Shown here: positions 45-16,725 of the stretch, piece by piece
Layout: the number at the start of each line of letters is the position of its first letter
How positions within the stretch are numbered: position 1 is the stretch's first letter
Assembly: GCA_001751075.1 (NCBI GenBank)
Contig: MAVP01000001.1
Location: forward strand, 1-61,139
Direction of reading: 5' to 3'
Source of the DNA: Desulfobacterales bacterium S7086C20
GTDB taxonomy: Bacteria; Desulfobacterota; Desulfobacteria; Desulfobacterales; C00003060
Length of the DNA stretch: 61,139 nucleotides
Made by a program: the position numbers and the translations under genes
The notes under the pieces: generated by a model
The model's input: only the letters and a program-made list of their open reading frames with translations
Told to the model about the DNA's origin: nothing
Database searches by the model: none

Positions 45-2285
45 CTAAGTAGTTGGAAAAGCAAGCCTGAATGTTGTTCCCTCATCCAGAGTAGATTCGA
101 CTTCTATATCGCCGGAGAAGTCTTTTACCAGGTTGTAGCTAATAGATAGTCCTAGGCCGGTTCCTTTCCCCGCTTCCTTTGTGGTAAAGAAAGGTTCAAA
201 AATCTTCTTCTGGGTTTGTTCTGACATTCCCTTCCCTGTGTCAGAGACCATTGCAACAATCTTGTTTCCCTCTTGGTGGGTAGAAATTGTAAGTCTTTTC
301 GGTGTTCCTGCCTCCTTTGCTTCCATGGCATCCCGGGCATTGGTTACCAAATTGAGAAAGATTTGTTCTAATCGGTTTTTGTCGGCCCGAATTTCAGGTA
401 ACCCTTCGTCGAGATCGAGTCGCACCTCGATGTTCCGCAAATTGAGTTGCTGGCCCAGCATAGTAAAGACATCTTGAATCGGTTGATTAATGTCTACCGG
501 ATAAACGTGGAAATCGCTCTTCCGTCCAAACTCTCGCAGATGGTTGATGATATTACTAGACCTGTTTACTTGTTCGCTTATGTTACGGCTAACCTTTAAC
601 AGTTGTTCCTCGGTGATTTCTTTACCGCGCTTTATCATCTTGGCAAGAAAATCGGCCCCTACTTGTATTGCATTCAAGGGTTGATTGATTTCGTGGGCAA
701 TACCGGTAGCCATCTCACCGAGAGTGGCTAACTTGCTCGCTTGGGTGAGCTTGGCAGCCTGTTCGAGGCGCCTGGTTATATCTACTGTCCGGACTATCAA
801 CGCACCTCCAGCGCTTCCATTGCCTGTGTCTTTCAGCTTTCCTGAACGAGCGTGAAGATTTATTACAAGGTGGTCTCCATTCTTTTTCCTTGCCCATGCT
901 TTGGGCACAAAGACATATACATCCTCAGGGGGGTGTGCCAGTTCTTGCCATACCCGTTCTCTCTCTTCAACGTCAAGGAGATCGAGAAACGACATTTGCA
1001 GAAGTTCTTTGAGGTAATATTGGTAAGTCTGGCAGGCTGAATAGTTTACATCCAGGATCTTGCCGGAATCGTAGTCGATCATAAAAAGTGGATTGGGGTC
1101 ATTATTGAACAAAAGACGGTATTTTTCTTCACTTGCCTTTACCTCTTCTTCTATCCGCAAACGATCTTTTACTTCCTGTCTAAGTTTTTTGTTTGCCACG
1201 CTCAATTCGATGGTGCGATCTTTTACACGTTGTTCCAGCTCATTGCGGGCCTTTTGGAGTTCTTTCTCGGCTTGCTTGCGGGCGGAGATGTCTACAACGT
1301 TACCCAAGATAGCGGGTTCGCCCTTATAGTTGATCTGAACGTTTCTCCTCGTAACCCATATGATTTTACCGTCTTTCCTGAGCCCTCTGGATTCATATTC
1401 AGATGGAGCATCTTTGCCTCTTAGCCTCTTAGCCCTTATTTCTTTTACAAGCCTTCTGTCTTTAGGATGAACCAGTTTTAATGACTCAATGCCTATCAGC
1501 TCAGCTTTTGAGTACCCATAGATCTCGGCAAACCGTTTGTTGGCAAATCGAATCTTTCCGCCTTGATCTGTATAGGTGCCGATGAGTGAGTTTTCAACCA
1601 ACGTGCTATACTTTTCCTCCGACTCTCGAAGCGCCCTTACTGCCTGCTTTCGCTCGGCCATCTCGATAGATACATTCTCAATCATATCATTTGTTACTTT
1701 GGCTAAGGATTGTAAGAGGTCTACCTCGGAAATCCCTGATACCCTGGCAGTCAAGTTGCCTTTTGACACGCGATGTAACACGTCAAAGTGTTCAGCAAGA
1801 CCTATGGCAAAGTCGTGCGAAAGGTTGACAATTTCTCCAAGGTTTTCTGCCATAAGGTTGACCATGTGTTTCAATTTGGTGATCAACTCCAGTTCTGATG
1901 TCTCCGAGATTCTAACCTCGGGATCTCCTGACGAGATCTGCTTCAAGGCCTCAAAGACCTCAGAAAGGCCTAGGGCCAACTCCATGCTGGTGCTTTCAAG
2001 CTCCCTGTCTCTTTGCTCAACCAACTTCCTGTATTCATCAAACTGATCATTTACAACCGTTAGGGTTTCTTCCATAGAGTCGAGATCTATGTTTGCCTTA
2101 AAGGGCTCACAGCTAAGACACATCTCTACCTTTTCCAGGAACTTGCCTTGGATTTCTTTCCTACAATGTGTCCCCGAAACCAGCCAACACTTTAACTCCT
2201 TTGATTGGTAGACCGGGCATTCGGATTCATTGCATTTGAGCACCTCCCAGCATTTTATCTTCTTTGTTGTTTTTTCCTTTTTCAT
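45..2285 (-). CDS. Sensor histidine kinase with a Cys-rich N-terminal module, coiled-coil/HAMP-like region, two PAS domains, HisKA and HATPase
   Basis: The ORF 45..2426 was trimmed to the ATG at 2285 (MKKEKTTKKIKCWEV). It has an H-box HEINQPL, a G-box GTGLGLS and two PAS-like blocks. The N-terminus has 7 Cys within about 50 aa. Confidence 0.85.
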   Translation of the reverse strand: MKKEKTTKKIKCWEVLKCNESECPVYQSKELKCWLVSGTHCRKEIQGKFLEKVEMCLSCEPFKANIDLDSMEETLTVVNDQFDEYRKLVEQRDRELESTSMELALGLSEVFEALKQISSGDPEVRISETSELELITKLKHMVNLMAENLGEIVNLSHDFAIGLAEHFDVLHRVSKGNLTARVSGISEVDLLQSLAKVTNDMIENVSIEMAERKQAVRALRESEEKYSTLVENSLIGTYTDQGGKIRFANKRFAEIYGYSKAELIGIESLKLVHPKDRRLVKEIRAKRLRGKDAPSEYESRGLRKDGKIIWVTRRNVQINYKGEPAILGNVVDISARKQAEKELQKARNELEQRVKDRTIELSVANKKLRQEVKDRLRIEEEVKASEEKYRLLFNNDPNPLFMIDYDSGKILDVNYSACQTYQYYLKELLQMSFLDLLDVEERERVWQELAHPPEDVYVFVPKAWARKKNGDHLVINLHARSGKLKDTGNGSAGGALIVRTVDITRRLEQAAKLTQASKLATLGEMATGIAHEINQPLNAIQVGADFLAKMIKRGKEITEEQLLKVSRNISEQVNRSSNIINHLREFGRKSDFHVYPVDINQPIQDVFTMLGQQLNLRNIEVRLDLDEGLPEIRADKNRLEQIFLNLVTNARDAMEAKEAGTPKRLTISTHQEGNKIVAMVSDTGKGMSEQTQKKIFEPFFTTKEAGKGTGLGLSISYNLVKDFSGDIEVESTLDEGTTFRLAFPTT

Positions 2286-2548
2286 CGCAAGTATTTTCCT
2301 ATAGGCCTTGACAGAATTGACCACAAAGTGATATACGATCACAGAACAAAATCTATATATTGTACACATATAGCACACAGGGAGAACGCAATCAAAGGGT
2401 TTCCCATGCAGGCAACATGTGTCCAACAGGTTGGAAGGATTACAGCGCGAGACAGCGCAAAGGTTTCAGTGCATGTTTGCCGCAGTATAATAGCATAATG
2501 GGTGTTGGGGTTCTCGTTGGCCCGTTATTACCAAAAGGAGGGGGAAAG

Positions 2549-2980
2549 ATGTCCAAGAAAATACTAATCGTGGATGATGAGCCAGACATCATTGCTTTTC
2601 TCGGTGCGCTTCTTGACGAAAACGGTTATGCAAGTGTGAGCGCTAAGGATGGAACTGAGGGGCTGGAACTGTTGCGCGACGAAAAACCGGACCTGGTGCT
2701 ACTCGACCTGATGATGCCTAAAAAGAGCGGCATTACTATGTTTCAAGAATTGAGGAAAGACCCTGACCTTAGCAGTGTGCCCGTAGTCGTGGTTACAGGT
2801 GTTTCTGAAGTAACGGGTGTTGACTTCAGGAATTTCATGTTCAAACAACCAATGCGAGACGAAAAGAAATTCGTTGAGACAACGGGTTTGACCAAATACA
2901 CCGTGCCAGACGGCTACATAGAAAAACCTATTGATCCGGATGAGTTGATTAGGACAATAAAGGAGATCTTCAAAGAATAG
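2549..2980 (+). CDS. Stand-alone CheY-like response-regulator receiver
   Basis: ATG at 2549 follows an AAGGAGGGGG RBS. The sequence MSKKILIVDDEPDI...DLVLLDLMMPKKSG...KP is typical of a receiver domain, and there is no output domain. Confidence 0.85.
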   Translation: MSKKILIVDDEPDIIAFLGALLDENGYASVSAKDGTEGLELLRDEKPDLVLLDLMMPKKSGITMFQELRKDPDLSSVPVVVVTGVSEVTGVDFRNFMFKQPMRDEKKFVETTGLTKYTVPDGYIEKPIDPDELIRTIKEIFKE

Positions 2981-2984
2981 TATT

Positions 2985-3157
2985 TGATGGCTTCGCAAAA
3001 AGTCCAAGTTAGCGCTACGCTTCACTGCGTGCCTGTGTTGAGCTGCATCTTTCGTCACTGCGGCGTACGATAAGTACACCTCATTCCTAAAGATTGCGCT
3101 ACTGAAGTGGCTTGAAAACAGTACGCGCGCCTTGAATTTGGAGCTTTTTACTTTGCC
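2985..3157 (+). repeat. Family A structured repeat (variant A1), copy 1
   Basis: It shares CGCAAAAAGTCCA...CGTACGATAAGTAC...GGAGCTTTTTAC with 36728..36934 (close match) and with 33781..33994 and 36935..37154 (same ends and core). Confidence 0.8.
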
Positions 3158-3203
3158 ATTTTTAGGTCATGGAGAAAACCAAGATCTCCAACCAAATCTC
3201 TTC

Positions 3204-3232
3204 TTGACATTATTGCGCTCTTGGCATATAAG
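3204..3232 (+). promoter_or_regulatory. Candidate sigma70 promoter of the cytochrome-rnf operon
   Basis: TTGACA at 3204-3209, a 17-nt spacer, then TATAAG at 3227-3232, about 190 nt upstream of the first ATG. Confidence 0.45.
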
Positions 3233-3419
3233 GCCGACCAATCCTACGTATTTGTATCGTCACCCTAATGTATCCCATAAAAGTGAGGGCGGCAATGTTA
3301 TCATATAGCAAATTTGCACATTTTTATTTCACTCACACCCTTCCATGCTATACGAGTTCTTATCGTTATCTAGCTTCTAAGAAAATAGGACTTAACCTGC
3401 GAAAGGAACGTTTAACGAG

Positions 3420-3785
3420 ATGACATCAAAGGGAGAACAATTGTTTGCGTATGGCCTTGCAGCCATATTGCTTATTGTGGGCGTTGTCTGTTACGCATCC
3501 TTGGCCCCAGAACCCCCTGAAGAACCTATAAGACTCATGTTTAAGACAAGTGCCGGGAAGATCCTATTTGATCACAAGATCCATACAGTTGAAGACGGGT
3601 ACGGCCTTGCGTGCGAGGATTGCCATCATGAGGAACAAGATGAGTCCAGCTCGTGTAGTGGCGAGGATTGCCATGGTCCCGATAGCGAACCAACAAGGGC
3701 TGACGCCTTTCACACTAATTGTAAGGGTTGTCATGAAGAAACTGGTGCAGGACCTGCTGAGTGTTCGGCATGTCATATGAGATAG
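3420..3785 (+). CDS. Membrane-anchored tetraheme cytochrome c (class III, c3-like)
   Basis: One N-terminal TM helix. Heme sites are CEDCH, CSGEDCH (CX4CH), CKGCH and CSACH, with an FDHKIH distal-His pattern. Confidence 0.8.
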   Translation: MTSKGEQLFAYGLAAILLIVGVVCYASLAPEPPEEPIRLMFKTSAGKILFDHKIHTVEDGYGLACEDCHHEEQDESSSCSGEDCHGPDSEPTRADAFHTNCKGCHEETGAGPAECSACHMR

Positions 3786-3822
3786 TAAGTGCTAACAGGG
3801 TTTTAACACGAAGGATCAAACT

Positions 3823-5088
3823 ATGACAAAAAGACCGTTTCTGGGGGTAGTGAAACCCCGTTTATACTACAATGTTGTGCCGGACGAGGTCGAAGAACTT
3901 CCAGCGCCTAAAAAGGTAACTCTGTTGTTGAAAAATGGGCGGAACGGAGGAGTTGCAGATGCAGTGAAGGTGGGTGATAGTGTAAAAACCGGACAGAGGC
4001 TTGGCGTGTCTGCTGGGAGTTCGGAATATGTCATTTCCTCAATAACCGGCACTATTTCTGGTGTAGCCCCCTATGTTGGCGTCTTTGGTCAGGTATTTAC
4101 GGCTATTACCATTGATGCGGGTGGACAGGATACCTGGGATGATGGGTTTAGCAAAGAAGCAAGTCTTGATGTTGCCCAAAGGTTTTTGGAATATATTCCG
4201 GGATGTCCTCCTTTCGCCGTGTTTAGTGATACCGGCAAGACCATACGTAGCATTGTTATAAACGGGATGGATCAAGACCTGTCCCTGACTGTTAATCAGT
4301 GTGTAGTCCAAAATGAGGCCGAAAACCTTAAAAGAGGGGTTCAAATTCTCAAGAAGATAACAGGCCTAGATCGTGTCATTATGGTTGTGCCCGAAAATCT
4401 GGTGCAACAAGCAAGTACCACTGGAGCAGAAGTAAAGAGGGTAGGTAATAGATATCCTGAAAGCCTTCCCCGAATGATTATGAAAAATGTGCTCGGCCAA
4501 GTGGTTTCAGCGGGGGAGACTATTGAAGAGGCAGGAACGGTATTCTTCAGTGCTGAAGCCGTGGCAGCTATAGGAAAAGCATTCGAGTCCGGTCAACTTC
4601 CAGTAAGCAAAATGCTTACCGTAGCTGGAAAAGATGGTAAAACCAAGAATGTGAAGGTGCGGATTGGATCATCCTTAGGTGATGTATTGCGATCATGTCA
4701 GACTGTGACCCATGATCGAGATCGCCTGATTTTGGGTGGGCCCATGACGGGCCTGGCCACTTATTCTGAGGATTTGCCGGTAGGGCCTGACACAGACGGA
4801 ATAGTAGTTCAAGGTGAGGCCGACAGCGCACAGGTTACGGATTATCCATGCATAAACTGTGGGGAATGCGTTCGGGTTTGTCCGGTTAAAATTCCCGTAA
4901 ATATGCTTGTTCGGTTTTTGGAGGCCAGGCTTTATGAAGATGCTAACCAATTGTACGACCTTAACTGCTGTGTTGAATGTGGACTGTGTTCCTATGTTTG
5001 TACGTCCAGGATTCCTGTCCTTCATTATATCAAACTAGGGAAATATGAACTTAGCTTGATCGAAACTTCGGAGGCGGTCAATGGGTAA
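3823..5088 (+). CDS. rnfC: RnfC-like subunit with two 4Fe-4S motifs; the NADH/FMN glycine motif is not recognisable
   Basis: C-terminal CINCGECVRVCP and CVECGLCSYVC, with overall RnfC architecture. Where GLGGAGFP..INGAECEP is expected, the sequence reads IPGCPPFAVF..INGMDQDLSL. Confidence 0.75.
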   Translation: MTKRPFLGVVKPRLYYNVVPDEVEELPAPKKVTLLLKNGRNGGVADAVKVGDSVKTGQRLGVSAGSSEYVISSITGTISGVAPYVGVFGQVFTAITIDAGGQDTWDDGFSKEASLDVAQRFLEYIPGCPPFAVFSDTGKTIRSIVINGMDQDLSLTVNQCVVQNEAENLKRGVQILKKITGLDRVIMVVPENLVQQASTTGAEVKRVGNRYPESLPRMIMKNVLGQVVSAGETIEEAGTVFFSAEAVAAIGKAFESGQLPVSKMLTVAGKDGKTKNVKVRIGSSLGDVLRSCQTVTHDRDRLILGGPMTGLATYSEDLPVGPDTDGIVVQGEADSAQVTDYPCINCGECVRVCPVKIPVNMLVRFLEARLYEDANQLYDLNCCVECGLCSYVCTSRIPVLHYIKLGKYELSLIETSEAVNG

Positions 5089-6115
5089 AGAAAAGAAACT
5101 TGTCGTTCCCCATGCATTATTTCCGTGGCAGCCAGGCAAAGAGGGGAATAAAGCAGAAAAGAGGTTTATCGTCGCCTATGGACCTCATTGGCATGATGGT
5201 GGTAAGATCTCAACAAAGAATTACAACATTGTTGTTGCCGCCCTTCCTGCCGTATTGATGGGGATTAGCCAGTATGGGGCCCCCGCTCTTGGGGTAATCG
5301 CATTGTCCATGGCCTGTGCAATGGTTTGGGAATTTGTTATGAACGTTGTCATGGGAAGGTCCGTTTCCATCGGTGACGGCAGTGCTATGGTAACAGGACT
5401 TCTGTTTGGTATGCTTCTGCCGGCTACTGCTCCCTGGTGGGTTGTTCTTCTGGGCACTTTTGCAGCCATAGTTATAGGGAAACAGATATTCGGTGGAATT
5501 GGGTTTAACCCTTTGAATCCTCCCCTACTTGCCCTTGCCATGTTGGTGATCTCGTTTGATGGAATCTTTGATTTCAATGAAGCATTATTAAACTATGACC
5601 TAGATTTTGCCATGACCTATCCCCTGGCCAACCTTAAGGCTTTTGGTACGGCCGGTATTGGCGAATTTGGCCTGGGCGCCCTCTTCATGGGTAAACAGGC
5701 AGGCGCCATTGGATCTACATTTGGCCTAGGACTTACCATAGGAGGCATTTATCTTCTGTTGAGAGGATATATCCGCTGGGAAATCTCCCTTTCATTTTTG
5801 GCGGGCATTTTTATAACGGCGCTTCTGTTTAACATGGCGGATTCAGCAAAATACGCCGGCCCGGCATTCCACTTGGTCACCGGGTATACATTGATAGCGG
5901 CCTTTTTTCTGATTCCAGAAGACTCTTCGTCTCCAGTCAATTTCATCCCCATGCTCATATTTGGAGTCTTAGCCGGGGTGATGACTGTACTCATTAGGAA
6001 TATTGGGGCCTATGTGGATGGTATTCCCTTTTCCATCCTGCTCTTAAATCTTGCCAATCCACTCCTGGATAAGATCAGACCAAAGGCGATTGGAAAGGTG
6101 GTAGAAAATGCGTGA
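5081..6115 (+). CDS. rnfD: RnfD-like polytopic membrane subunit
   Basis: GGIGFNPLNP block, multiple TM helices, and an ATG overlapping the rnfC stop. There is no SGAT/TGAT motif anywhere in the protein. Confidence 0.8.
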   Translation: MGKEKKLVVPHALFPWQPGKEGNKAEKRFIVAYGPHWHDGGKISTKNYNIVVAALPAVLMGISQYGAPALGVIALSMACAMVWEFVMNVVMGRSVSIGDGSAMVTGLLFGMLLPATAPWWVVLLGTFAAIVIGKQIFGGIGFNPLNPPLLALAMLVISFDGIFDFNEALLNYDLDFAMTYPLANLKAFGTAGIGEFGLGALFMGKQAGAIGSTFGLGLTIGGIYLLLRGYIRWEISLSFLAGIFITALLFNMADSAKYAGPAFHLVTGYTLIAAFFLIPEDSSSPVNFIPMLIFGVLAGVMTVLIRNIGAYVDGIPFSILLLNLANPLLDKIRPKAIGKVVENA

Positions 6116-6701
6116 TATTATCAGGATGATAGTGGTGCTTGCCGTTTTGGCAGCTTGTTCGGGCGGCTTGCTGGCGGCGGTCAAGTCAGGGACTGCTGCG
6201 AAAATCGAAGTTCAGCAACTAACGTTTGTCAAGGGGCCGGCTATTCAGGAGATCCTTAAAGGTTGCACCAACAATCCGATCGAAGATCGCTTTAAACTGA
6301 AAGTGGGGGATGAAGAGAAGACTTTTTTTGTGGGCAAATTCGACAATACCCCTCCAGCCGTTGTTTATGAAACCTTTGGCAAAGGTTTTGCGGGCGATGT
6401 TGGTATTATGGTGGGCGTTAACATTGAAACGGACAAACTTATTGGCATAGGCATTACGACACATTCTGAAACGCCCGGCTTGGGTGCCAGGGCCAAAACC
6501 GACCGAGGTTTTAAGGAGAGCTTTCAGGGACTTTCCATTAAAGACGCTATTAAGGTTAATAAAGATGGCGGTAATGTGGATTCCATATCCGGCGCAACCG
6601 TGACATCCAGAGGGGTGTGTACAGGGATTACCGGTAGTTCTGATATGTACCAAGAACTTAAGCCGAAAATCATGGAAAATGTTAAGGCCTTTGGCAGTTA
6701 G
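6108..6701 (+). CDS. rnfG: RnfG FMN-binding subunit
   Basis: N-terminal anchor plus the SISGATVTSRG flavinylation-type motif. The gene overlaps rnfD. Confidence 0.85.
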   Translation: MRDIIRMIVVLAVLAACSGGLLAAVKSGTAAKIEVQQLTFVKGPAIQEILKGCTNNPIEDRFKLKVGDEEKTFFVGKFDNTPPAVVYETFGKGFAGDVGIMVGVNIETDKLIGIGITTHSETPGLGARAKTDRGFKESFQGLSIKDAIKVNKDGGNVDSISGATVTSRGVCTGITGSSDMYQELKPKIMENVKAFGS

Positions 6702-6712
6702 GGAGAAAAATA

Positions 6713-7321
6713 ATGGCCAAAACGATTGTTCAAGAGTTTACCAAGGGATTGTGGGATGAGATACCACCGTTTCGTCTTGTGCTCGGTCTTTGCCCGGTTT
6801 TAGCGGTGACCAAGACACTAGGCAACGGAGTTGGAATGGGGGTAGCAGCTACGTTTGTGCTTCTGTGTTCCAATATTCTGGTATCGGCGCTTCGTTCGGT
6901 AATACCGGGGAAAGTAAGGGTGCCTTGTTTCATTATCATTATTGCCACCTTTGTTGTTGTAGTAGAACTGGTTATGCAGGCTGTCGCGTATCCCCTTTTT
7001 CTTCAGCTGGGGATCTTTATTCCTTTGATCGTAGTAAATTGTATTATTCTCGGACGAGCTGAGGCCTTTGCCTTTAAGAACGGGGTGGCGGCCGCAGCAG
7101 CTGACGGGCTCGGCATAGGGGCAGGATTTACGATTTCTCTAGCAGCATTAGGGGCCCTTCGGGAAATTCTTGGCAGTGGCACACTGTCAATCCCCTTTTC
7201 AGACAGTGTTATACAAATGTTCGGACCGGACTTTCAGCCTTTTTCTTTCATGATCGAAGCTCCCGGCGCCTTTGTTTGTTTGGGTCTGATGCTTGGGGTC
7301 ATGAACCTGGCCGGAAAATAG
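6713..7321 (+). CDS. rnfE: RnfE membrane subunit
   Basis: Typical RnfE/NqrD-like sequence (LGLCPVLAVT, IPLIVVNCIILGRAE). Confidence 0.85.
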   Translation: MAKTIVQEFTKGLWDEIPPFRLVLGLCPVLAVTKTLGNGVGMGVAATFVLLCSNILVSALRSVIPGKVRVPCFIIIIATFVVVVELVMQAVAYPLFLQLGIFIPLIVVNCIILGRAEAFAFKNGVAAAAADGLGIGAGFTISLAALGALREILGSGTLSIPFSDSVIQMFGPDFQPFSFMIEAPGAFVCLGLMLGVMNLAGK

Positions 7322-7348
7322 TTTTAAAAGGCTGATAAGGAGAATTCC

Positions 7349-7924
7349 ATGGGAGACTATGTCTTACTCGCAATAAGTGCTATTTTGGTCAACAATATTT
7401 TGCTGATCCAGTACTTAGGCAACTGTCCCTTTCTGGGTACGTCTAAGAAGATGGATACTGCAGTGGGCATGGCTATGGCGGTGGTCTTTGTCCTGGCCAT
7501 GGCAGGTATTGTGACCTGGGTCTTGGAAGTCGTCTTTCTGAAACCATTGGGACTTGAATACATGCGCACAATCGTATTTATTTTGGTGATTGCCGCATTA
7601 GTCCAATTCGTGGAGATCTTTCTCAAAAAGAGCATGCCAGCGCTTTATGCGGGGCTGGGGATCTTTCTCCCATTGATTACGACCAATTGTGCTGTTATGG
7701 GGGTGTGTCTGATCAATATCAAAGAGGAGTACAACTTCGTAGAAATGCTTGTCTCTTCCATAGCCTATCCGGCCGGTTTTGGTTTGGCCTTGATTCTTTT
7801 TGCCGGACTGCGTGAACGTATTATCATTGGCCGGGTTCCCAAGCCTATGGAGGACACGGCCATTGCCTTGGTAACAGCAGGATTTATGTCTCTGGCCTTT
7901 ATAGGCTTTAATGGTATGATTTAA
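7349..7924 (+). CDS. rnfA: RnfA membrane subunit
   Basis: Typical RnfA/NqrE-like sequence (NNILLIQYLGNCPFLG, LPLITTNCAVMG). Confidence 0.85.
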   Translation: MGDYVLLAISAILVNNILLIQYLGNCPFLGTSKKMDTAVGMAMAVVFVLAMAGIVTWVLEVVFLKPLGLEYMRTIVFILVIAALVQFVEIFLKKSMPALYAGLGIFLPLITTNCAVMGVCLINIKEEYNFVEMLVSSIAYPAGFGLALILFAGLRERIIIGRVPKPMEDTAIALVTAGFMSLAFIGFNGMI

Positions 7925-7965
7925 TAGAGGCTCTTGGCAATTTTTAATATGAAAGAGGTTAAAAA

Positions 7966-10056
7966 ATGTTAGAACCCTTACTTCTCATGTTGGCATTAGG
8001 GGCTGTTTCCGGCACAATCCTGGGGATTGCCTCCAAGGTATTTTATGTGTGGGAAGATCCCCGCATCGCTGAGGTAGAAGATTGTCTGGCCGGCGCCAAC
8101 TGTGGTGCATGTGGTTATACCGGATGTTCGGCTTGTGCAGCAGCCATAGTGGAAGGTAGGGCGCCAGCCAGTGCGTGTATTGTAGGTGGTGCTACTTCCG
8201 CAACAAAGGCGGCGGCGGTTATGGGCATGGAAGTTGGGGCGGCCGAGCCGCTTATATCTGAAAATACATGTACCGGCGGATTTCGAGCACCGGAGAAATA
8301 TTACTATATGGGTGTCAACGATTGTCGGGCTGCTTACATGCTCTATGCGGGGGCCAAGGATTGTGGTGTGGGGTGCCTTGGTTTTGGAAGCTGTGTGAAG
8401 GCCTGTCTGTTCGATGCACTCAAGCTTGGTCCTGAAGGTTTTCCTGTAGTGGATATAGAGAAATGCGTGGGATGCGGGGCCTGCGAGAATGCTTGCCCCA
8501 AGGGGATTATGCAGGTTCGCACGCCTTCCGAGCGAATCCTTCATGTCAACCTTAATACCGACCGTCTTGCCCCCTGTCGACAGACATGTCCTGCTGAAAT
8601 CAACATTCCGAAATATATAAACCATATTAAGAATGGGGAGTATGACAAGGCGTACTTGACCATTATGGAACGTAACCCGATGCCGCTTTCAATAGGTCGT
8701 GTATGTCCCCATCCCTGCGAGGATGCTTGCCGCAGGGCCACGGGAGATGATGCCCCTGTTTCTATCAATCAACTGAAGAGATTTTGTTCTGACTGGGTGT
8801 TTGACAATAATATGCCTATAGATCTATCGGTAGCTCCGGATACGGGTTACAGGGTGGCCATCGTGGGCGGAGGTCCGAGTGGTTTGAGCGCCGCTTATTT
8901 CTTGAGACGTTTGGGACACCAGGTGAAAATCTTTGAATGGATGCCGGAACTTGGGGGAATGATCTATTACGGTATTCCTGAGTATCGGCTTCCCAAGGCA
9001 ATCCTTGGAAAGGATGTTCAACGGATCCTGGACCTTGGAGTTGAGGTAAAGACCGGAGTAAAATTTGGTGTTGACTTTAATTTGGAATCTCTGGTTGGCG
9101 GGGGGTATGATGCCGTGGTTATGTCTATTGGGGCCTGGAATCACGCCTCGGCGCGCATTCCAGACGAGGATAAGGTGAAAGGTGTCATTCCTGCTACTAT
9201 CTATCTAAGAAGGCAGGGGCTGGGCCAGGACAATCCCATCGGTAAAAGGGTCGGAGTTATCGGTGGGGGCAATGTTGCCATGGATGCCTTAAGGACCAGC
9301 GTGCGTCTTGGGGCCGAAAAGGTCTACTGCCTCTATCGGCGAGAGATCAAGGATATGCCTGCGAACCATGTTGAAATAGAGGCCTGTCAACATGAAGGGA
9401 TTGAATTTATCACCTTGTGCAGTCCCACAAAGTTTGTTACGGACGACGAGGGAAACCTTACAGGTATTGAATACCTAAAAAACGAACTCGGTGAACCTGA
9501 CGCTAGTGGTAGACAAAAGCCTGTGCCGATTGAAGGGTCTGAGACAGTACTCGAACTCGATAATTTTGTTATTGCCATCGGCCAGAAAACGGATTCAGCC
9601 TTTGCAGATGAAGAAGGAACGGCAGTATCCAGAATTGACACCTTCAAAGGCGCGTTGGTGGTTAACGCAGATACCATGCAAACAACCGTTCCTTACGTAT
9701 TTTCCAGCGGTGATTCCGCCGGTCCGCCGGGGCTTTTAGTTGGGGCTGTTGGCGCCGGCAGGCGCGCTGCTAGGGGTATCCATAAGTACCTTATGCGTGA
9801 GGAGATGGTCTTTCCAGACGCTAGACTTCGTGTCGATTCTAGGCGGATGACTGGTCATATCCCCGGGACCATCTTTGAAAGTGTTGAAGGTATTCAGAAA
9901 AAAGGACGTATAGGACAACCTGAGCTTGAACCCGGTTCTTATGAAAGACAGCACACCGTGGCCGAGGTGGATTTGACTGTTACAGAAGAAGACGCATTAA
10001 AAGAGGCAAACCGGTGTATGCGTTGTTGTCTTACTTGTTATAATAGCGACACATAA
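7966..10056 (+). CDS. rnfB: RnfB fused to a GltD-like (glutamate synthase small subunit / NfnB / SudA type) NAD(P)H-dependent FAD oxidoreductase
   Basis: The N-terminus has a TM helix, CGACGYTGC and two ferredoxin motifs. From about aa 195 (nt 8548) it has CRQTCPAEINIP...RVCPHPCEDAC, FAD site VAIVGGGPSGLSAAY and NAD(P)H site VGVIGGGNVAMDA. The C-terminus reads CMRCCLTC. Confidence 0.8.
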   Translation: MLEPLLLMLALGAVSGTILGIASKVFYVWEDPRIAEVEDCLAGANCGACGYTGCSACAAAIVEGRAPASACIVGGATSATKAAAVMGMEVGAAEPLISENTCTGGFRAPEKYYYMGVNDCRAAYMLYAGAKDCGVGCLGFGSCVKACLFDALKLGPEGFPVVDIEKCVGCGACENACPKGIMQVRTPSERILHVNLNTDRLAPCRQTCPAEINIPKYINHIKNGEYDKAYLTIMERNPMPLSIGRVCPHPCEDACRRATGDDAPVSINQLKRFCSDWVFDNNMPIDLSVAPDTGYRVAIVGGGPSGLSAAYFLRRLGHQVKIFEWMPELGGMIYYGIPEYRLPKAILGKDVQRILDLGVEVKTGVKFGVDFNLESLVGGGYDAVVMSIGAWNHASARIPDEDKVKGVIPATIYLRRQGLGQDNPIGKRVGVIGGGNVAMDALRTSVRLGAEKVYCLYRREIKDMPANHVEIEACQHEGIEFITLCSPTKFVTDDEGNLTGIEYLKNELGEPDASGRQKPVPIEGSETVLELDNFVIAIGQKTDSAFADEEGTAVSRIDTFKGALVVNADTMQTTVPYVFSSGDSAGPPGLLVGAVGAGRRAARGIHKYLMREEMVFPDARLRVDSRRMTGHIPGTIFESVEGIQKKGRIGQPELEPGSYERQHTVAEVDLTVTEEDALKEANRCMRCCLTCYNSDT

Positions 10057-10160
10057 TAACTGTTACACCAAACCGGGGTTTAGGTTAGAAACATTTTTCG
10101 GGGGGTTGCGTGCAAGGGTTATTATTCCTTGGCCAATCCCCTGAGTTGGTTTGAGAGGTT

Positions 10161-10345
10161 GTAGCTGTTAGCGGGGGTCGGCGATCAGGGTCCAGGTGCC
10201 AGGAAAAGTTGGTCACGCCAAAAAGTTATCAAGATTTAAAAGTCTCGAAATAGAACAGCAGAGATTGGTAGAATGTTGAATGGTTTGCGAAAGCCTATTC
10301 AGAAAAAGGTCTGATCCCTGCCCCCTGACCCCCGTGAACCGTTAC
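10161..10345. repeat. Family C imperfect palindrome (complete copy)
   Basis: The left arm is GTAGCTGTTAGCGGGGGTCGGCGATCAGGGTCC. The right arm GATCCCTGCCCCCTGACCCCCGTGAACCGTTAC is its imperfect reverse complement. The left arm recurs at 31750. Confidence 0.75.
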
Positions 10346-10359
10346 GAAAGGTTTTTTTG

Positions 10360-10902
10360 ATGAACGAGACAAAGCAATCTTATGTTGGCAGCGAGAGCAC
10401 TGAAGATGCTGATGCCGCACAAAAACGCATTGTGATCTTGGGTGTGGGCAATTTGTTGTTGTCAGACGAAGGTGTCGGCGTTCATGTGGCCAACAAGCTC
10501 ATGGAGATGGATCTTCCTTCCGGCGTTGAGGTGATCGAAGGGGGGACGGATGGTTTCAGGTTGATGAATGTGGTAATGGGTGCAGACCGGGTTGTGGTCG
10601 TTGATGCAGTAAAAGGTGGAGGTGAACCCGGCTCCATCTACCGGTTTGACATCGATGATGTCCCATCATCTCCCGAATCCTATAAGACCTCTGTTCACCA
10701 GATCGGAATACTGGAAGTAATCCATCTCTCGGAGTTTATCGGTAAACCCCCTGAAACCACAATCATTGGTGTAGAACCAAAATCTCTTGATATGTCCATG
10801 GAACTATCCCCCGAAGTACAAGATAAAGTTCCCCGAATTATCGAGTTGGTCTTAGAAGAGGTGCGAAAATTTGTGCCCGAAATTGAAGGAAGCTCTCAAT
10901 AA
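10360..10902 (+). CDS. NiFe-hydrogenase maturation endopeptidase (HybD/HyaD/HoxM family)
   Basis: ILGVGNLLLSDEGVGVHV...EGGTDG...DAV...H motifs. ATG at 10360. Confidence 0.85.
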   Translation: MNETKQSYVGSESTEDADAAQKRIVILGVGNLLLSDEGVGVHVANKLMEMDLPSGVEVIEGGTDGFRLMNVVMGADRVVVVDAVKGGGEPGSIYRFDIDDVPSSPESYKTSVHQIGILEVIHLSEFIGKPPETTIIGVEPKSLDMSMELSPEVQDKVPRIIELVLEEVRKFVPEIEGSSQ

Positions 10903-10908
10903 CGCCAA

Positions 10909-11150
10909 GACTTTTTGAGGTGTTGCAAAGTGAGTAACATCTCAAAAAGTCCTGGCATTAAACCGGGCGAAGGGGTTTTATTTTCGAAGGCGGTATCAAT
11001 TATGTTTGTGGGGCGTGGCCGGATATTTTGTGATTGGCCAAGCACGTGCCAAGCTCATAAAGACATTTGAGTCAATCACAATATCCGGCCACTGCGAAAG
11101 TCCGAAAGAACGACCAAGATACCGTCTTCAAAAATAAGACCCCTTCGCCC
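10909..11150. repeat. 16-bp-stem hairpin (10909..10951) followed by a nested imperfect palindrome of about 186 bp (10965..11150)
   Basis: GACTTTTTGAGGTGTT pairs with AACATCTCAAAAAGTC. GGGCGAAGGGGTTTTATTTTCGAAGGCGGTATC pairs with GATACCGTCTTCAAAAATAAGACCCCTTCGCCC. The inner pair is GGCCGGATATTTTGTGATTGG with CAATCACAATATCCGGCC. Confidence 0.8.
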
Positions 11151-11234
11151 TAGATTATTGAGAACTTACCAAAGTAAGTACCAACGTAGCGGGAAAACTT
11201 GCAATCCTAAAGTTTGTATGCGATTCTAATCATT

Positions 11235-12113
11235 ATGCTTGTCTACGAGAAGGTCTCCTTTGGTTCGGAGTGTAACAATCGTTGTATGACCTGTCCGTCT
11301 GCCCGCCAGCAGGAAACCCCACGCCTAAATGAGCTTGTCGCTCAAATTGATGCCCTGAAGAATGGTGAAAACCTTGAACTGTTTGGTGGTGAACCGACAC
11401 TTCACGAAGACTTGGTGTCGCTTATTTCTTACGCCAGGAAGCGAGGCGCCAGGCGTATAAAGTTGGTTACAAATGGCCGGAGGCTTGCAGACGCAGATTT
11501 TCTGTTCCATTTGGTAGAAGAAGGCTGTCGGATTTTTGAAGTGAAGATATACGGTTCAAGGCCTGAGACGCACGATGCGGTTACATGTGTGAGGGGAAGT
11601 CTTGATGAGACACTTCGTGGACTACAAAACCTTGGTGGCATATCAGATTCTGGCGGCCATGAAGGTGACATCTATGTAGGAATTCGTTTTGGAGTGACAA
11701 ATACGAATCTTGAAGACCTGGTTCCTGCTGTTGCCTTTCTCATGTCTTTTAGTATAGACGCTATTAGTTTTGTTCGCATGGGCGGTGATTTCCCGATAGT
11801 CCAGGCAGCCCGTATGGTGGCAAATGCCATGAAGGTGGCCACTCTAAATCGTATTTGGTCTATGTGTGAGGGTTTCCCCCCCTGTGTGATGAAAGGCTCT
11901 GAGACTCATCTTTCCGAATTACTTCAGCCTGTGGCCTTCGAAAACGACAAGCCTAAATCGTGCCTTAGGTGTGTCTTTGCAAAGATATGTACAGGCCCCC
12001 ATGGGGATTATGCCGGTAAAGGTTTGCGGGATTTCAAAGCTGTCTCAGCATCTCCATACTCCAAAGATATGGAGTACCTCCTTAAGATGAGGTCAATCCA
12101 TGCCAAGCAATAG
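11235..12113 (+). CDS. Radical SAM protein with a C-terminal CX2CX5C cluster (SPASM/twitch-like)
   Basis: CNNRCMTC (CX3CX2C), GGEPTLH, and C-terminal CLRCVFAKIC. The start is uncertain (TTG 11214 or ATG 11235). Confidence 0.7.
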   Translation: MLVYEKVSFGSECNNRCMTCPSARQQETPRLNELVAQIDALKNGENLELFGGEPTLHEDLVSLISYARKRGARRIKLVTNGRRLADADFLFHLVEEGCRIFEVKIYGSRPETHDAVTCVRGSLDETLRGLQNLGGISDSGGHEGDIYVGIRFGVTNTNLEDLVPAVAFLMSFSIDAISFVRMGGDFPIVQAARMVANAMKVATLNRIWSMCEGFPPCVMKGSETHLSELLQPVAFENDKPKSCLRCVFAKICTGPHGDYAGKGLRDFKAVSASPYSKDMEYLLKMRSIHAKQ

Positions 12114-13377: not shown

Positions 13378-13440
13378 GGCTCGCTTGTATCATATATTTG
13401 TTCACTCTATACCCTAGCGCGACTTTCAAGCTCTTTTTGT

Positions 13441-13599
13441 AGGGCTCGTCACTCAATAACTGTCACATTTTGCTGGTCTTTTGGGCCGTCTTCTGCGTTG
13501 CTCGGTTGGTCACATACCTCGGCATGCTCCCGCCCGAGCGCCTTGAATACAACCCAAAATCCTTCGCAATCTTGAGACACTTATTTCGTGACAAACCCT
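13441..13599. repeat. Family B imperfect palindrome
   Basis: GGGCTCGTCACTCAATAACTGTCACATTTTGCTGG is mirrored by ...GAGACACTTATTTCGTGACAAACCC. The start motif TAGGGCTCG is duplicated at 13375, and a similar arm occurs at 60994. Confidence 0.65.
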
Positions 13600-13694
13600 T
13601 AGAACTGTCAAAATCGTGTGTTTAAGATCGTCAATTTATTGACAATGTGTGATCACTTCTTGGTGTTTGCGGGGAAATGGGGGCTGTAATGTCC

Positions 13695-13709
13695 GGCACA
13701 CGGCTTGCA
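13695..13709 (+). promoter_or_regulatory. Candidate sigma54 (-24/-12) promoter upstream of the hydrogenase genes
   Basis: GGCAC-ACGGC-TTGCA has canonical GG-to-GC spacing and lies 124 nt upstream of the ATG at 13833. Confidence 0.5.
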
Positions 13710-13832
13710 TAACTTTAATCTAAATCTAGGATTTCATAAAGAAATCTCCCTTACTGTCGACAATCAAAGTCTTGAATTAATGCTTATGGCCACAATTACT
13801 TTGACGGTTTTGTGATAAAAGGAGGTTGTACA

Positions 13833-14804
13833 ATGAACGGACTATTTGGTGACATATCACGCAGGGACTTCATGAAGTACTGCGCTACAACTGCTGCTGT
13901 GCTTGGTCTTTCAGAGATGGAATTAGTTTCCAAGGTCTCAGAGGCTTTGGCAGCGTCGAGCAGCAAGGCGCCGGTAGTATGGCTGGAAGGTCAGGACTGT
14001 GCGGGGTGTACCATCTCATTAGCAGGCGCCCTAAATCCGCCTGTATCTTCGATCATTCTGGATAAGCTGTCCATCCGGTATCATGAAACCATAATGGCAA
14101 GCGCCGGTTACCTGGCAGAGGCAGTTTATGAAGATACGGTTAAGGCTGGGGGGCATGTGTTGTGCGTAGAGGGCTCCATTCCCACTGCAGATGACCGGTT
14201 CTGTATGATTGGAGGACGGCCCTTCAGGGAGATGGTCAAAGAGTCTGCCGAGAAGGCGGCGGTAATCATTGCCGTTGGGGCCTGTGCCGCATACGGTGGT
14301 ATTCCGGCGGCTGGTCCCACTAAGTCAGTTGGCATTGGCAAGATTGTAAAAGACAAACCTATTATCAATCTTCCCACTTGCCCGGTGCATTGCGATCATC
14401 TGGTAGGTTCCATCCTCTACTTTCTGGCGACTAAGAGTGCGCCGCCATTAGATAAGATCGGGAGACCAAAACTCTATTTTGACGAGCTTGTCCACGACAA
14501 TTGCAGGAGGCGGTCCTACTTTGATGATGGACTTTTCCTGACAGATTGGAATGATCCCAAGCAGAAGAACTGGTGTCTCTATGAGAAGGGTTGCAAGGGC
14601 CCGGACACCTATGCAGACTGCCCGGTGCGTAGATGGAACGATGGACAGAATTTCTGCATTGACTGTGGCGCCGGATGTATGGGTTGTGCAGAGCCGGATT
14701 TCTATGACGGCATGTCGCCTCTGTACACGGCGGAAAGTGAGCGATCACGAAATATAATGGCCAGAAAAGAGGCCGGACTTATTCCACCAAAGGAGAAGGC
14801 ATGA
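13833..14804 (+). CDS. Periplasmic [NiFe] hydrogenase small subunit (Tat signal)
   Basis: AAGGAGG RBS, twin-arginine SRRDFMKY, and typical Cys ligand pattern. There is no C-terminal membrane anchor. Confidence 0.9.
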   Translation: MNGLFGDISRRDFMKYCATTAAVLGLSEMELVSKVSEALAASSSKAPVVWLEGQDCAGCTISLAGALNPPVSSIILDKLSIRYHETIMASAGYLAEAVYEDTVKAGGHVLCVEGSIPTADDRFCMIGGRPFREMVKESAEKAAVIIAVGACAAYGGIPAAGPTKSVGIGKIVKDKPIINLPTCPVHCDHLVGSILYFLATKSAPPLDKIGRPKLYFDELVHDNCRRRSYFDDGLFLTDWNDPKQKNWCLYEKGCKGPDTYADCPVRRWNDGQNFCIDCGAGCMGCAEPDFYDGMSPLYTAESERSRNIMARKEAGLIPPKEKA

Positions 14805-14820
14805 AAGGAAGTGATAGAAA

Positions 14821-16383
14821 ATGGGAAAGAAAATAACAATCGATCCGGTTACAAGAATTGAAGGACACCTTGCAATAACAGTTGAACTTGAAAACGGCAA
14901 GGTCAAAGATGCCTGGAGCAGTGGTACCATGGCTAGAGGTTTTGAAGCCCTCCTTCAAGGAAGAGACCCAAGGGATGCGCCTTTTGTGACAAGCCGCTTT
15001 TGTGGAGTATGTTACAGTGTCCATCAAATGGCCAGTATTAGGGCTCTGGATGAGGCCTTTGGGGCTAATGTGCCTTGGGGCGGAATGCTTCTAAGAAACC
15101 TTGCCATGGGTGCCGAGTATGTCTACGACCATATCCTCCATTTTTATCATCTCAGCGCCCTTGATTACATTGATATCATGGCGGTGGCCGCATACAAGGG
15201 CAGGGATAAGTCATTGAATGCCCTGAAAGAAAAGGTAGTAGGCCTGGTCAAATCAAAGGATGTCTTTCCCCTTACACCCAGGTACAAGCCCGACGAGTTT
15301 AGTGTGACGGATCCGGACATGGTAACCTCGGCCGTCAAACACTATATCGACGCCCTTGCCATTCAAGCCAAGGCCAGGAACATGGGCGCCATCTTTGGAG
15401 GAAGGCAGCCCCATTACCAAAGCCTGGTCGTAGGCGGCTGTACGCAGTATCCGGATATAAATATGGTAGCAAAATACCGCACCATGTTGGATGAAATGGC
15501 ACAGTTTGTAAACGAAGTGTATATTCCGGATGTCCTTGCCTTTGGGACAGGCCCTCTGTTTCCCTTGGCAAAGATGGGATTAGGTGGTGGTCACTATAAT
15601 TATATGTCCTATGGTGCCTTAGAGTTGGACAAGGATGGCAAGGACCAGGTATTTCCGGCAGGGGTAATCAAAAATCTTGATCCAGGAAACATCAAGGTAG
15701 AAGGCTTCAAGCCCGACAAGATTACCGAATCAGTCAAACATGGTTGGTACAAGGAAAACAAACCCGTGCATCCTTACAATGGCGAGCAGGTCTTTGATCT
15801 TGACAAAGAGGGTGCATATTCCTTTATCAAGGCGCCTCGTTATGACGGTGAGCCTATGGAAGTTGGGCCCCTTGCGAGGATGCTTATTGCAGGCAATCCT
15901 GATCTTCTAGGTCTTATCGAAAAAGGCGCAAAGCCAGGGGTCGTGGCACGACACGCAGCAAGAGCTATCGAAACGAAGCTAATCATAGATGCTTGTTACA
16001 AATGGTGTGACGAGTTGCTTTCTGAGATGACAAAACCGGGCTTTAAAATCCATGACACGGCTCACTACGAACCGCCTAAGGAAGGTGAAGGGGTCGGTTT
16101 TTATGAGGCGCCGCGCGGATCGCTGGGACACTGGGTCAAGATCAAGGACAGAAAGATTGAAAACTATCAATGTGTGGTTCCGTCCACCTGGAACGCCTCG
16201 CCTAGATGCGAGAACAAATATCGTGGACAGTACGAGGAATCACTCATCGGGGCACCTGTTCCTGATCCCGACAATCCGATCAATGTGGTGCGCATTATTC
16301 GCTCCTTTGATCCCTGTCTGGCCTGTGCCATACATTTAATTGATCCACAAACAAACGAGCTAAAAGACTTTATTGTGGAATAA
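14821..16383 (+). CDS. [NiFe] hydrogenase large subunit
   Basis: N-terminal TRIEGH and RFCGVC. C-terminal DPCLACAIH followed by a 15-aa extension, which is the protease substrate. The ligand is Cys rather than Sec, so this is NiFe and not NiFeSe. Confidence 0.9.
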   Translation: MGKKITIDPVTRIEGHLAITVELENGKVKDAWSSGTMARGFEALLQGRDPRDAPFVTSRFCGVCYSVHQMASIRALDEAFGANVPWGGMLLRNLAMGAEYVYDHILHFYHLSALDYIDIMAVAAYKGRDKSLNALKEKVVGLVKSKDVFPLTPRYKPDEFSVTDPDMVTSAVKHYIDALAIQAKARNMGAIFGGRQPHYQSLVVGGCTQYPDINMVAKYRTMLDEMAQFVNEVYIPDVLAFGTGPLFPLAKMGLGGGHYNYMSYGALELDKDGKDQVFPAGVIKNLDPGNIKVEGFKPDKITESVKHGWYKENKPVHPYNGEQVFDLDKEGAYSFIKAPRYDGEPMEVGPLARMLIAGNPDLLGLIEKGAKPGVVARHAARAIETKLIIDACYKWCDELLSEMTKPGFKIHDTAHYEPPKEGEGVGFYEAPRGSLGHWVKIKDRKIENYQCVVPSTWNASPRCENKYRGQYEESLIGAPVPDPDNPINVVRIIRSFDPCLACAIHLIDPQTNELKDFIVE

Positions 16384-16529: not shown

Positions 16530-16616
16530 TGGTGCCGAAGGGGAGACTCGAACTCCCACGGACATACATCCACTAGACCCTGAACCTAGCGCGTCTACCA
16601 GTTCCGCCACTTCGGC
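16530..16616 (-). tRNA. tRNA-Leu (anticodon CAG)
   Basis: The reverse complement reads GCCGAAG...anticodon loop TTCAGGG...long variable arm...GGGAGTTCGAGTCTCCC-CTTCGGC-A-CCA. Length is 87 nt. Confidence 0.9.
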
Positions 16617-16725
16617 ATTTTGGAAGGCAGAAAAGAATTGATTTTGTAGCTGGATTGGTTTAAATAAAATGTTTTACTTTTTTTGTCAAGGTCCTTATGA
16701 AATACTTGATAACAGTGTCTTTACT

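Follow-up and report, generated by a model that had tools for sequence, protein, structure and literature searches.

Sulfate-reducing bacteria are known to possess a variant Rnf-type membrane complex, Rnf2 (Rnf2/Tol2-type), described from genomes and proteomes as combining a large RnfB, a degenerate RnfC and a cytochrome c3 encoded in the same cluster (PMC5109826, PMC11887813, PMC11434368). Dörries et al. (PMC5109826) credit the first report to Wöhlbrand et al. 2013; subunits were detected by proteomics and the mode of action was said to await experiments. The name Rnf2 comes from a 2025 study of the Desulfobacteraceae, where the complex belongs to the family core genome, is abundant and constitutive in six strains, and is also noted in Desulfarculus baarsii and 'Dv. 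salexigens' (PMC11887813). In the marine Desulfovibrionaceae, Rnf2 has been noted and an analogy to Nqr drawn (PMC11434368). According to the published hypothesis, oxidation of ferredoxin, possibly also of NADH, reduces the associated cytochrome c3, which feeds the menaquinone pool via Qrc, in a forward direction that accompanies the oxidation of organic substrates (PMC11887813). An operon of this kind is analyzed here in a 61,139-nucleotide stretch of DNA, hereafter the window, from Desulfobacterales bacterium S7086C20 (contig MAVP01000001.1).

The operon, a seven-gene Rnf-type membrane redox operon, occupies contig positions 3420-10056 on the + strand. As the original prediction had it, the genes are tightly packed, with the open reading frames (ORFs) exactly at the coordinates given there and intergenic spacings of 37, -8, -8, 11, 27 and 41 nucleotides (nt). 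The gene order is cytochrome c3, rnfC, rnfD, rnfG, rnfE, rnfA and an rnfB fused to a GltD-type module. The six Rnf subunits (A, B, C, D, E and G) occur together, each with Pfam and NCBIfam matches, and TIGR01946, TIGR01947, TIGR01948 and TIGR01943 score above their cut-offs. The same arrangement is seen again in dozens of species-level genomes, so that a chance pattern is excluded.

Judging by the predicted proteins, the operon is a further member of the Rnf2/Tol2-type, from an uncultured Desulfobacterales lineage, and shows no architectural difference from it. The 696-amino acid RnfB corresponds to the ∼700-amino acid RnfB described there, which likewise consists of an RnfB-like N-terminal part of 200 amino acids (aa) and a pyridine-nucleotide oxidoreductase domain; RnfC likewise lacks the NADH-ubiquinone oxidoreductase flavin mononucleotide (FMN)-binding and soluble-ligand-binding domains; and a small cytochrome c3 gene is likewise present in the cluster, here directly upstream of rnfC. 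The nearest relatives are Desulfobacterales; D. toluolica and D. multivorans were matched by their published description. The combination, which the original prediction took to be uncharacterized as far as its author was aware, had thus already been described (PMC5109826, PMC11887813 and its supplement, PMC11434368), and the architecture, along with much of its interpretation, is published for Desulfobacteraceae and Desulfovibrionaceae. New from the present analysis are a clade-wide loss of the RnfD flavin site, a modular use of the cytochrome and the fusion, and fused modules with decayed nucleotide sites.

Flavin sites of RnfC and RnfD

RnfC comprises an RnfC_N barrel, a NuoF/NqrA-like middle domain and a C-terminal ferredoxin domain with two [4Fe-4S] clusters. 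Alignment to three solved RnfC structures (8ahx_C, 7zc6_C, 9eri_C) places 'IPGCPPF' at the position of GGAxFP and 'NGMDQDLSLT' at that of NG(A/S)ECEPYLT, so that the middle domain is without the FMN/NADH motifs (aa 124-134, nt 4192-4224; aa 146-158, nt 4258-4296). A profile search of RnfC found no SLBB domain, and the score against TIGR01945, 203 bits, is below the cut-off of 246. Both CxxCxxCxxxC motifs of the ferredoxin domain are intact (aa 343-354, nt 4849-4884; aa 383-394, nt 4969-5004). The claim that RnfC has no recognizable NADH/FMN motif is therefore well founded, and the Rossmann/FMN site whose retention would have spoken to the contrary was sought in the same alignment, where its signature motifs are replaced. 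Both GGAxFP and ECEPYLT are missing from RnfC in all 86 related loci in which the protein is readable.

In the cryo-electron microscopy structure of the C. tetanomorphum complex, Thr153 of RnfD is the site of covalent FMN attachment, and the residues named around the isoalloxazine ring include Arg130, Glu185 and Ser284 (PMC9588780). A regular-expression scan of the whole RnfD of the window for D..[ST].A[TS] or [ST][GAS]A[TS] found no match, and Tyr180 (nt 5618-5620) aligns with Thr153, as expected from the original prediction of an RnfD without the SGAT flavinylation motif. The FMN-contact residues, mapped by hand from the alignment to 7zc6_D and 9eri_D, are replaced as well (Arg130 by Leu152, Glu185 by Ser212 and Ser284 by Pro316); the equivalent of Asn124 (Asn146) is kept, together with an acidic pair, E280/D281, at the position of Asp248.

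An RnfD-alignment scan with one genome per species yielded at least 540 relatives, of which 80 loci, 58-81% identical in RnfD, were kept for comparison; they belong to Desulfobacterales, Desulfatiglandales, Candidatus (Ca.) Desulfaltia and Ca. Desulfacyla. The sequence M-x-[Y/F]-P-L is found in RnfD of all 80 loci and the flavinylation Thr in none, so that a retained flavinylated Thr, named originally as grounds for refutation, is seen neither in the window nor among these relatives. When RnfD is sampled by 50%-identity representatives, the canonical Thr/Arg/Glu triad is present in 83 of the ∼130 full-length proteins; in the ∼33 nearest to the window, Arg is absent and Thr and Glu are mostly absent. 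Across the clade, the FMN pocket is occupied by Leu/Trp/Tyr/Ala-type residues instead. The Desulfovibrionales RnfD are also devoid of Arg and usually of Thr; average-linkage clustering of the RnfD lacking Arg130 did not show a single clade.

The loss of the RnfD Thr is mentioned in none of the three descriptions of Rnf2 (PMC5109826, PMC11887813, PMC11434368), and the supplement of PMC11887813 calls the remaining subunits 'very similar' to those of canonical Rnf; the words 'Desulfo', 'sulfate' and 'cytochrome c' are absent from a 2025 Rnf/Nqr review. The loss of the flavinylation Thr and the FMN-contact residues is an addition to those descriptions. Being clade-wide, it predicts covalent flavin on RnfG only, and it advises caution against annotating such operons as ferredoxin:NAD+ oxidoreductases.

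The same replacements bear on the possibility that the complex is an ordinary ferredoxin:NAD+ Rnf, with RnfC and RnfD sites that are divergent but functional and with the GltD module and the cytochrome as accessories. In its favor, the set of six core subunits is complete and in synteny, and RnfC matches Complex1_51K marginally above the Pfam cut-off (32.4 vs 31.2 bits), in an N-terminally truncated match to profile positions 26-148. However, both RnfC signatures are replaced, SLBB is absent and TIGR01945 stays below its cut-off, RnfD has lost Thr, Arg and Glu, and these losses are fixed over dozens of species; an ordinary Rnf appears extremely improbable.

RnfG matches NF045876 (RnfG_DVU2794; 242 bits vs a cut-off of 205) and PF04205, and its flavinylation motif, D158-S-I-S-G-A-T164 (nt 6579-6599), is intact; [S/T/G]GA[T/S] is kept in RnfG of all related loci. 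Homologs of ApbE, RseC and Usp from related loci, used as queries against the window, found none of the three genes there, and with no ApbE in the window the gene for the flavin transferase that RnfG needs must lie outside it. Among the subunits, conservation is highest in RnfA and RnfE, with a median identity of 73-74% to the window proteins over the 80 loci. Cys27 and Cys110 of RnfE and Cys26 and Cys114 of RnfA stand at the positions of the intramembrane [2Fe-2S] ligands, which we take them to be from established Rnf/Nqr structures.

Cytochrome, RnfB fusion and their variation

The first gene encodes, as originally proposed, a membrane-anchored tetraheme cytochrome c3. The protein matches PF02085 (E = 2.8e-9; 37.7 bits vs a cut-off of 22.9) and, with three CxxCH motifs, one CxxxxCH motif and eight His in total within about 100 residues, conforms to the pattern of class III tetraheme c3 with bis-His ligation. 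The heme sites are C65xxC68H69, C79xxxxC84H85, C101xxC104H105 and C115xxC118H119, and the candidate distal ligands are His52, His55, His70 and His98; the TmcA and c7 equivalog models score far under their cut-offs. The N-terminal transmembrane helix (∼aa 8-29) is strongly conserved over 64 loci and shows no obvious cleavage site, and the P-x-x-x-P-E-E-P that follows it is also conserved in the 64 relatives. Conservation of the helix would be more in keeping with a membrane anchor or a subunit interface than with a signal peptide that is cleaved off. In every related locus with enough 5' flank, the operon opens with a c3-type gene ahead of rnfC; its product has 4 hemes in 45 loci, 5 in 18, 7 in 2 and 10 in 1.

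The fused RnfB (7966-10056) carries a complete GltD-type FAD/NAD(P)H module, in agreement with the original prediction (FAD, flavin adenine dinucleotide). Residues 1-200 are RnfB itself, with an N-terminal transmembrane helix, the PF04060 iron-sulfur (Fe-S) domain and a ferredoxin domain with two [4Fe-4S] clusters. Fer4_20 with two 4Fe-4S sites (residues 202-282) and Pyr_redox_2 (residues 295-598) follow, with intact motifs for FAD (GGGPSG, aa 301-306) and NADPH (GGGNVAMD, aa 434-441; YRR, aa 457-459), and a C-terminal extension ends in CMRCCLTC. The score against PRK12771, 475 bits, is below the cut-off of 516. Among solved proteins, 9bov_A, 9n5u_A and 8oh5_C match the module best, with 4ylf_B and 5jca_L next. 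Residues 201-612 can be aligned over their full length with NfnB/GltD/DPD-type modules (4ylf_B, 5jca_L, 6s6s_G and the fused 8oh5_C of StnC, 9n5u_A and 9bov_A), all cofactor motifs being kept, and the linker of the fused forms aligns with the C-terminal extension. Those fused forms continue into a molybdopterin or other domain, whereas the module here is attached to a membrane-anchored RnfB and stops soon after CxxCCxxC.

The nearest loci belong to metagenome-assembled genomes (MAGs) of Desulfobacterales/Desulfobacteria and have the same gene order; the nearest database RnfD, 96% identical, comes from a syntenic metagenome contig, and the window proteins altogether are 66-96% identical to database members. 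The state of RnfB varies over the related loci, with the fusion in most of them. In the Ca. Desulfaltia group, a 270-aa RnfB and a Usp gene lie upstream of cytochrome-rnfCDGEA, and an RseC/MucC-family gene follows rnfA (L028, L029, L038, L040, L056, L070). RseC also adjoins the operon in L020, L081, L083, L084 and L087. Several loci have no rnfB within reach, L020 and L025 among them, and degenerate RnfC and RnfD stand alongside an ordinary RnfB of 265-270 aa in L040, L084 and L087. Fourteen of the fused RnfB, about a third, have decayed FAD and NADPH motifs (GGGAEGL instead, the NADPH loop and YRR lost) with the Fer4_20 cysteines kept (L024, L027, L031, L033-L037, L041, L044, L054, L066, L073, L074), which suggests a secondary loss of the pyridine-nucleotide site in these lineages.

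Still more variation is found in distant loci with 36-39% RnfD identity and RnfC again degenerate. An uncultured bacterium related to ADurb.Bin236 (L081) has a fused RnfB, and a downstream 536-aa protein with 22 CxxCH (12647-14257) replaces the small upstream c3. A Deltaproteobacteria MAG (L083) combines the fusion with ApbE and has no cytochrome gene, and an uncultured Deltaproteobacteria/Pseudomonadota MAG (L084) has c3 and a small RnfB. The two Pseudodesulfovibrio loci (L086, L090) possess a decaheme-type cytochrome (10 CxxCH counted in L086) along with the fusion. In Desulfonatronovibrio hydrogenovorans (L087, 1-5398), nqrBCDEF-apbE, including a true nqrF, lies immediately upstream of rnfCDGEAB with a degenerate RnfC and a small RnfB. 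Homolog searches for RnfC and RnfD of D. vulgaris and D. alaskensis reached only Pseudodesulfovibrio, Desulfonatronovibrio, Desulfothermus, Desulfohalobiaceae and Desulfomicrobiaceae.

Since every examined relative, even with a small RnfB or a decayed module, has a degenerate RnfC and RnfD, the loss of their sites is the common ground state and the GltD fusion an optional addition. The view of the fusion and the degenerate RnfC as an obligate pair was ruled out by the small RnfB of L040, L084 and L087 and by the loci without rnfB (L020 and others). The survey called for by the original prediction, of the fusion together with RnfC lacking GGAGFP, accordingly gives a mixed answer: most loci with degenerate RnfC are fused, but the fusion is not required. 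The proposal that the pyridine-nucleotide site has moved from RnfC to RnfB stands in so far as the site is absent from RnfC and intact on RnfB, and is too simple in that RnfC and RnfD are also degenerate where RnfB is small or its module decayed.

The variation also limits an explanation centered on the fused module, namely membrane-bound, ion-coupled bifurcation or confurcation, in which an NfnB-like FAD would split the electron pair of NADPH, sending one electron to ferredoxin through the RnfB clusters and the other through RnfAE and RnfG to the cytochrome c3/menaquinone pool. The nearest solved relatives of the module are indeed NfnB-type units from complexes that bifurcate or act as transhydrogenases (4ylf_B, 5jca_L, 8oh5_C, 9n5u_A), both 4Fe-4S sites and the FAD and NADPH motifs are kept, and the fusion sets the module beside a ferredoxin-docking Fe-S chain. 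Against this, the same module serves in GltD and DPD, neither of which bifurcates, and the operon has no NfnA-like high-potential [2Fe-2S]/FAD partner. With FAD and NADPH motifs decayed in a third of the fused relatives and a plain RnfB in others, bifurcation cannot be the core function of the clade, and even for the window it seems very unlikely. If it did operate, what is called 'Rnf' in sulfate reducers would be something other than a ferredoxin:NAD+ oxidoreductase and the energy models for these organisms would need rewriting; Desulfobacteraceae perform much of marine sulfate reduction.

A tentative electron path

In canonical Rnf, the return branch to NAD+ runs through the FMN of RnfD, riboflavin, the Fe-S clusters of RnfC and the FMN of RnfC. 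Here, this branch would be severed at both flavin sites, in RnfD and in RnfC. The remaining cofactor sites form a chain RnfB -> RnfAE -> RnfG-FMN, and therefore a ferredoxin/NADPH:cytochrome c3 oxidoreductase is the simplest reading. Rnf2 as a reversible, ion-coupled enzyme of this kind, and not a ferredoxin:NAD+ oxidoreductase, is a reading to which we would assign tentative confidence, slightly short of an even chance. The sequences themselves show which subunits are encoded, which motifs are kept or lost, how well they are conserved and how modular the parts are; what we infer extends to every electron-transfer step, the ion coupling, the use of NADPH over NADH and the physiological direction. 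Electrons would enter at cytoplasmic RnfB, those of ferredoxin at its Fe-S clusters and those of NADPH at the fused GltD/NfnB-type FAD by way of the two 4Fe-4S clusters of the module. They would cross the membrane through the RnfA/RnfE [2Fe-2S] center, arrive at the covalently bound FMN of periplasmic RnfG and leave to the membrane-anchored tetraheme cytochrome c3, from which Qrc/menaquinone would lead to sulfate reduction. Should this exit from RnfG-FMN to cytochrome c3 be confirmed, Rnf2 would supply the connection that is missing between ferredoxin and NADPH in the cytoplasm and the cytochrome/Qrc/menaquinone route in the periplasm, as a bacterial counterpart of the Methanosarcina Rnf-cytochrome system.

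The periplasmic NiFe hydrogenase expected from the original prediction ∼4 kb downstream is found 3.8 kb beyond the operon, and its small subunit has the twin-arginine motif SRRDFMKY of proteins exported by twin-arginine translocation (Tat). A hydrogenase of this type and its maturation protease come after rnfB in all of the closest relatives. This conserved adjacency (L001, L004, L006, L007, L010, L014, L016, L026) speaks for a connection with the periplasmic c3 pool: the hydrogenase directly follows rnfB in L004, L006, L010 and L014, and the maturation protease adjoins rnfB in L001, L007, L026 and L088. Given this conserved adjacency, a reverse run, driven by the ion gradient, from the periplasmic hydrogenase through cytochrome c3 to NADP+ or ferredoxin is plausible for growth on H2; it is the direction of the original prediction and opposite to that of the published hypothesis.

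Polarity sets a further constraint. If the polarity of the core is fixed and NAD(P)H feeds in through RnfB, the partner on the opposite side would need a more positive potential than NAD(P)H, as cytochrome c3 or menaquinone would have and ferredoxin would not. A simple swap of sites that puts ferredoxin on RnfC and NAD(P)H on RnfB would conflict with this thermodynamic polarity and was rejected.

Several observations weigh against a path that ends at cytochrome c3. Both 4Fe-4S motifs of RnfC are strictly conserved across the related loci, and the median identity to the window RnfC over the 80 loci is 60% for the ferredoxin domain and 43-45% for the N-terminal domains, which argues that the branch from RnfD to RnfC, or RnfC itself, may still carry electrons; the truncated pathway leaves the strict conservation of these clusters unexplained. 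RnfD without the Thr may still bind flavin non-covalently. The cluster cytochrome gene is absent in L083 and L087, and in D. alaskensis G20 the decaheme gene of the operon (dhcA) is dispensable where rnf is essential, rnf being needed on H2, formate and ethanol (PMC4215793), the G20 Rnf being possibly, though not necessarily, of the degenerate class. The preference of the fused module for NADPH over NADH is suggested by motif similarity, YRR alone. A literature search for a biochemical or structural study of Rnf2 found none.

Much of this would be accommodated if the out-and-back loop were retained, with non-covalent flavin or riboflavin linking the RnfG FMN via RnfD to the RnfC 4Fe-4S clusters, where electrons would be exchanged with a cytoplasmic protein, for example ferredoxin, flavodoxin, DsrC or a module of the Hdr/Qmo type, and with the cytochrome as a side branch. 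The invariant RnfC motifs and the better conserved Fe-S domain, E280/D281 as an acidic equivalent of the riboflavin/Na+-site Asp, the clade members without the cluster cytochrome and the dispensable dhcA (PMC4215793) are all in line with such a loop. However, none of the Thr, Arg and Glu that form the FMN site survives in RnfD, where hydrophobic or aromatic residues mostly take their place, a search of the neighborhoods of related loci found no conserved partner gene beside the operon, and, with ferredoxin as the partner and NADPH on RnfB, the exergonic direction would oppose the pumping polarity of the core. On balance, a retained loop is unlikely, though the likeliest of the alternatives.

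The remodeled RnfD pocket admits yet another interpretation, an Nqr-like, ion-pumping NAD(P)H:menaquinone oxidoreductase in which the RnfB module would correspond to NqrF and RnfC to NqrA, with menaquinone in or near that pocket. RnfC does score against NqrA models (NF003761, 90.7 bits; PF24836 NQRA_2nd, 28 bits), and refilling of the pocket with Leu/Trp/Tyr/Ala-type residues is clade-wide. An analogy to Nqr has, as noted above, been drawn for Desulfovibrionaceae (PMC11434368), and D. multivorans has Rnf2 and no Nqr (PMC5109826). The pattern of losses is nevertheless the opposite of that in Nqr, where the NqrB FMN-Thr is kept and the NqrA Fe-S clusters are lost, and the co-transcribed cytochrome would be left unexplained, so this alternative is distinctly unlikely.

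Gene coordinates, neighboring genes and related systems

Table 1. Features of the Rnf2-type operon and the associated hydrogenase genes, in window coordinates
Feature	Coordinates	Strand	Basis
Cytochrome c3-family protein, predicted membrane-anchored tetraheme, 121 aa	3420..3785	+	PF02085, heme motifs, His count
RnfC-like subunit, 421 aa	3823..5088	+	Profiles and alignment to solved RnfC
RnfD without flavinylation site, 344 aa	5081..6115	+	PF03116 (291 bits), alignment to 7zc6_D and 9eri_D, regular-expression scan
RnfG, periplasmic FMN-binding subunit, 197 aa	6108..6701	+	NF045876, PF04205, flavinylation motif
RnfE, 202 aa	6713..7321	+	TIGR01948 (235 bits), PF02508, Cys positions
RnfA, 191 aa	7349..7924	+	TIGR01943 (244 bits), Cys positions
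RnfB module of the fusion (aa 1-200)	7966..8565	+	Profiles; 9eri_B and 7zc6_B align to aa 2-207
GltD/NfnB-type module of the same protein (aa 201-696)	8566..10056	+	PF14691, PF07992, motifs, solved relatives
NiFe hydrogenase maturation protease, HycI/HybD type	10357..10902	+	PF01750, TIGR00072
NiFe/NiFeSe-type group-1 hydrogenase, periplasmic (Tat)	13812..16383 (small 13812-14804, large 14821-16383)	+	Profiles, Tat motif

Between rnfB and the hydrogenase lie the maturation protease and two radical S-adenosylmethionine (SAM) genes, with ribF beyond. The two radical-SAM genes, inserted at 11214-13377, are one HxsC-like (below the cut-off) and one B12-binding. The ribF gene (bifunctional riboflavin kinase/FAD synthetase, 16669-17655) is close to an operon that requires FMN and FAD. 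A scan of 2900-10500 for promoters and terminators gave counts no different from chance. The sole Rfam match in the whole window is a tRNA gene on the - strand (16533-16616), with no riboswitch near the operon.

Upstream of the operon, a PAS histidine kinase on the - strand (45-2426) is paired with a divergently oriented response regulator, a layout kept in L007 and L088 (1558-4495 in the latter). As listed, the response-regulator ORF (2360-2980, with a TTG start) is probably too long: the syntenic protein of L088 measures 143 aa, and residue 68 is where the receiver domain starts. Compared with the window over 45-13377, L007 is 86-93% identical in the flanks (histidine kinase, HycI, the radical-SAM genes and the C-terminal part of RnfB) and only 66-77% identical in the cytochrome, RnfC, RnfD and RnfG, which suggests a mosaic or a fast-evolving segment within a syntenic region.

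With canonical Rnf (A. woodii 9eri, C. tetanomorphum 7zc6, A. vinelandii 8ahx), the operon shares the six subunits and the order rnfCDGEAB, the Cys pairs of RnfA and RnfE, the FMN-Thr of RnfG, the Fe-S domains of RnfB and the two [4Fe-4S] clusters of RnfC. Unlike canonical Rnf, it has neither the RnfC FMN/NADH site nor the RnfD covalent-FMN site, and it has an extra FAD/NADPH module on RnfB and a cytochrome c3 gene. The Rnf/MmcA system of Methanosarcina acetivorans, compared by its description, resembles the operon in that a cytochrome c is co-transcribed, with RnfG-FMN as its proposed electron donor, and in that NAD(P) goes unused while RnfC retains two 4Fe-4S motifs (PMC4023990). It differs in its small RnfB without a pyridine-nucleotide module, in MmcA being another multiheme protein, in the acceptor, methanophenazine, and in belonging to an archaeon. 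The likeness to Na+-NQR (NqrABCDEF) lies in the NAD(P)H/FAD input at the RnfB/NqrF position and in an RnfC/NqrA homolog without a flavin/NADH site. However, NqrF consists of Fer2 and an FNR-type unit (FAD_binding_6, NAD_binding_1), whereas the module here is GltD/NfnB-type and a profile search found no NqrF-type subunit in the operon; Nqr, moreover, has no cytochrome subunit, and its losses mirror those seen here, the FMN-Thr being still present in NqrB and the Fe-S clusters gone from NqrA. For the path proposed above, the Rnf-cytochrome c system of M. acetivorans serves as the functional precedent and Nqr as the analog for pyridine-nucleotide input at the RnfB side.

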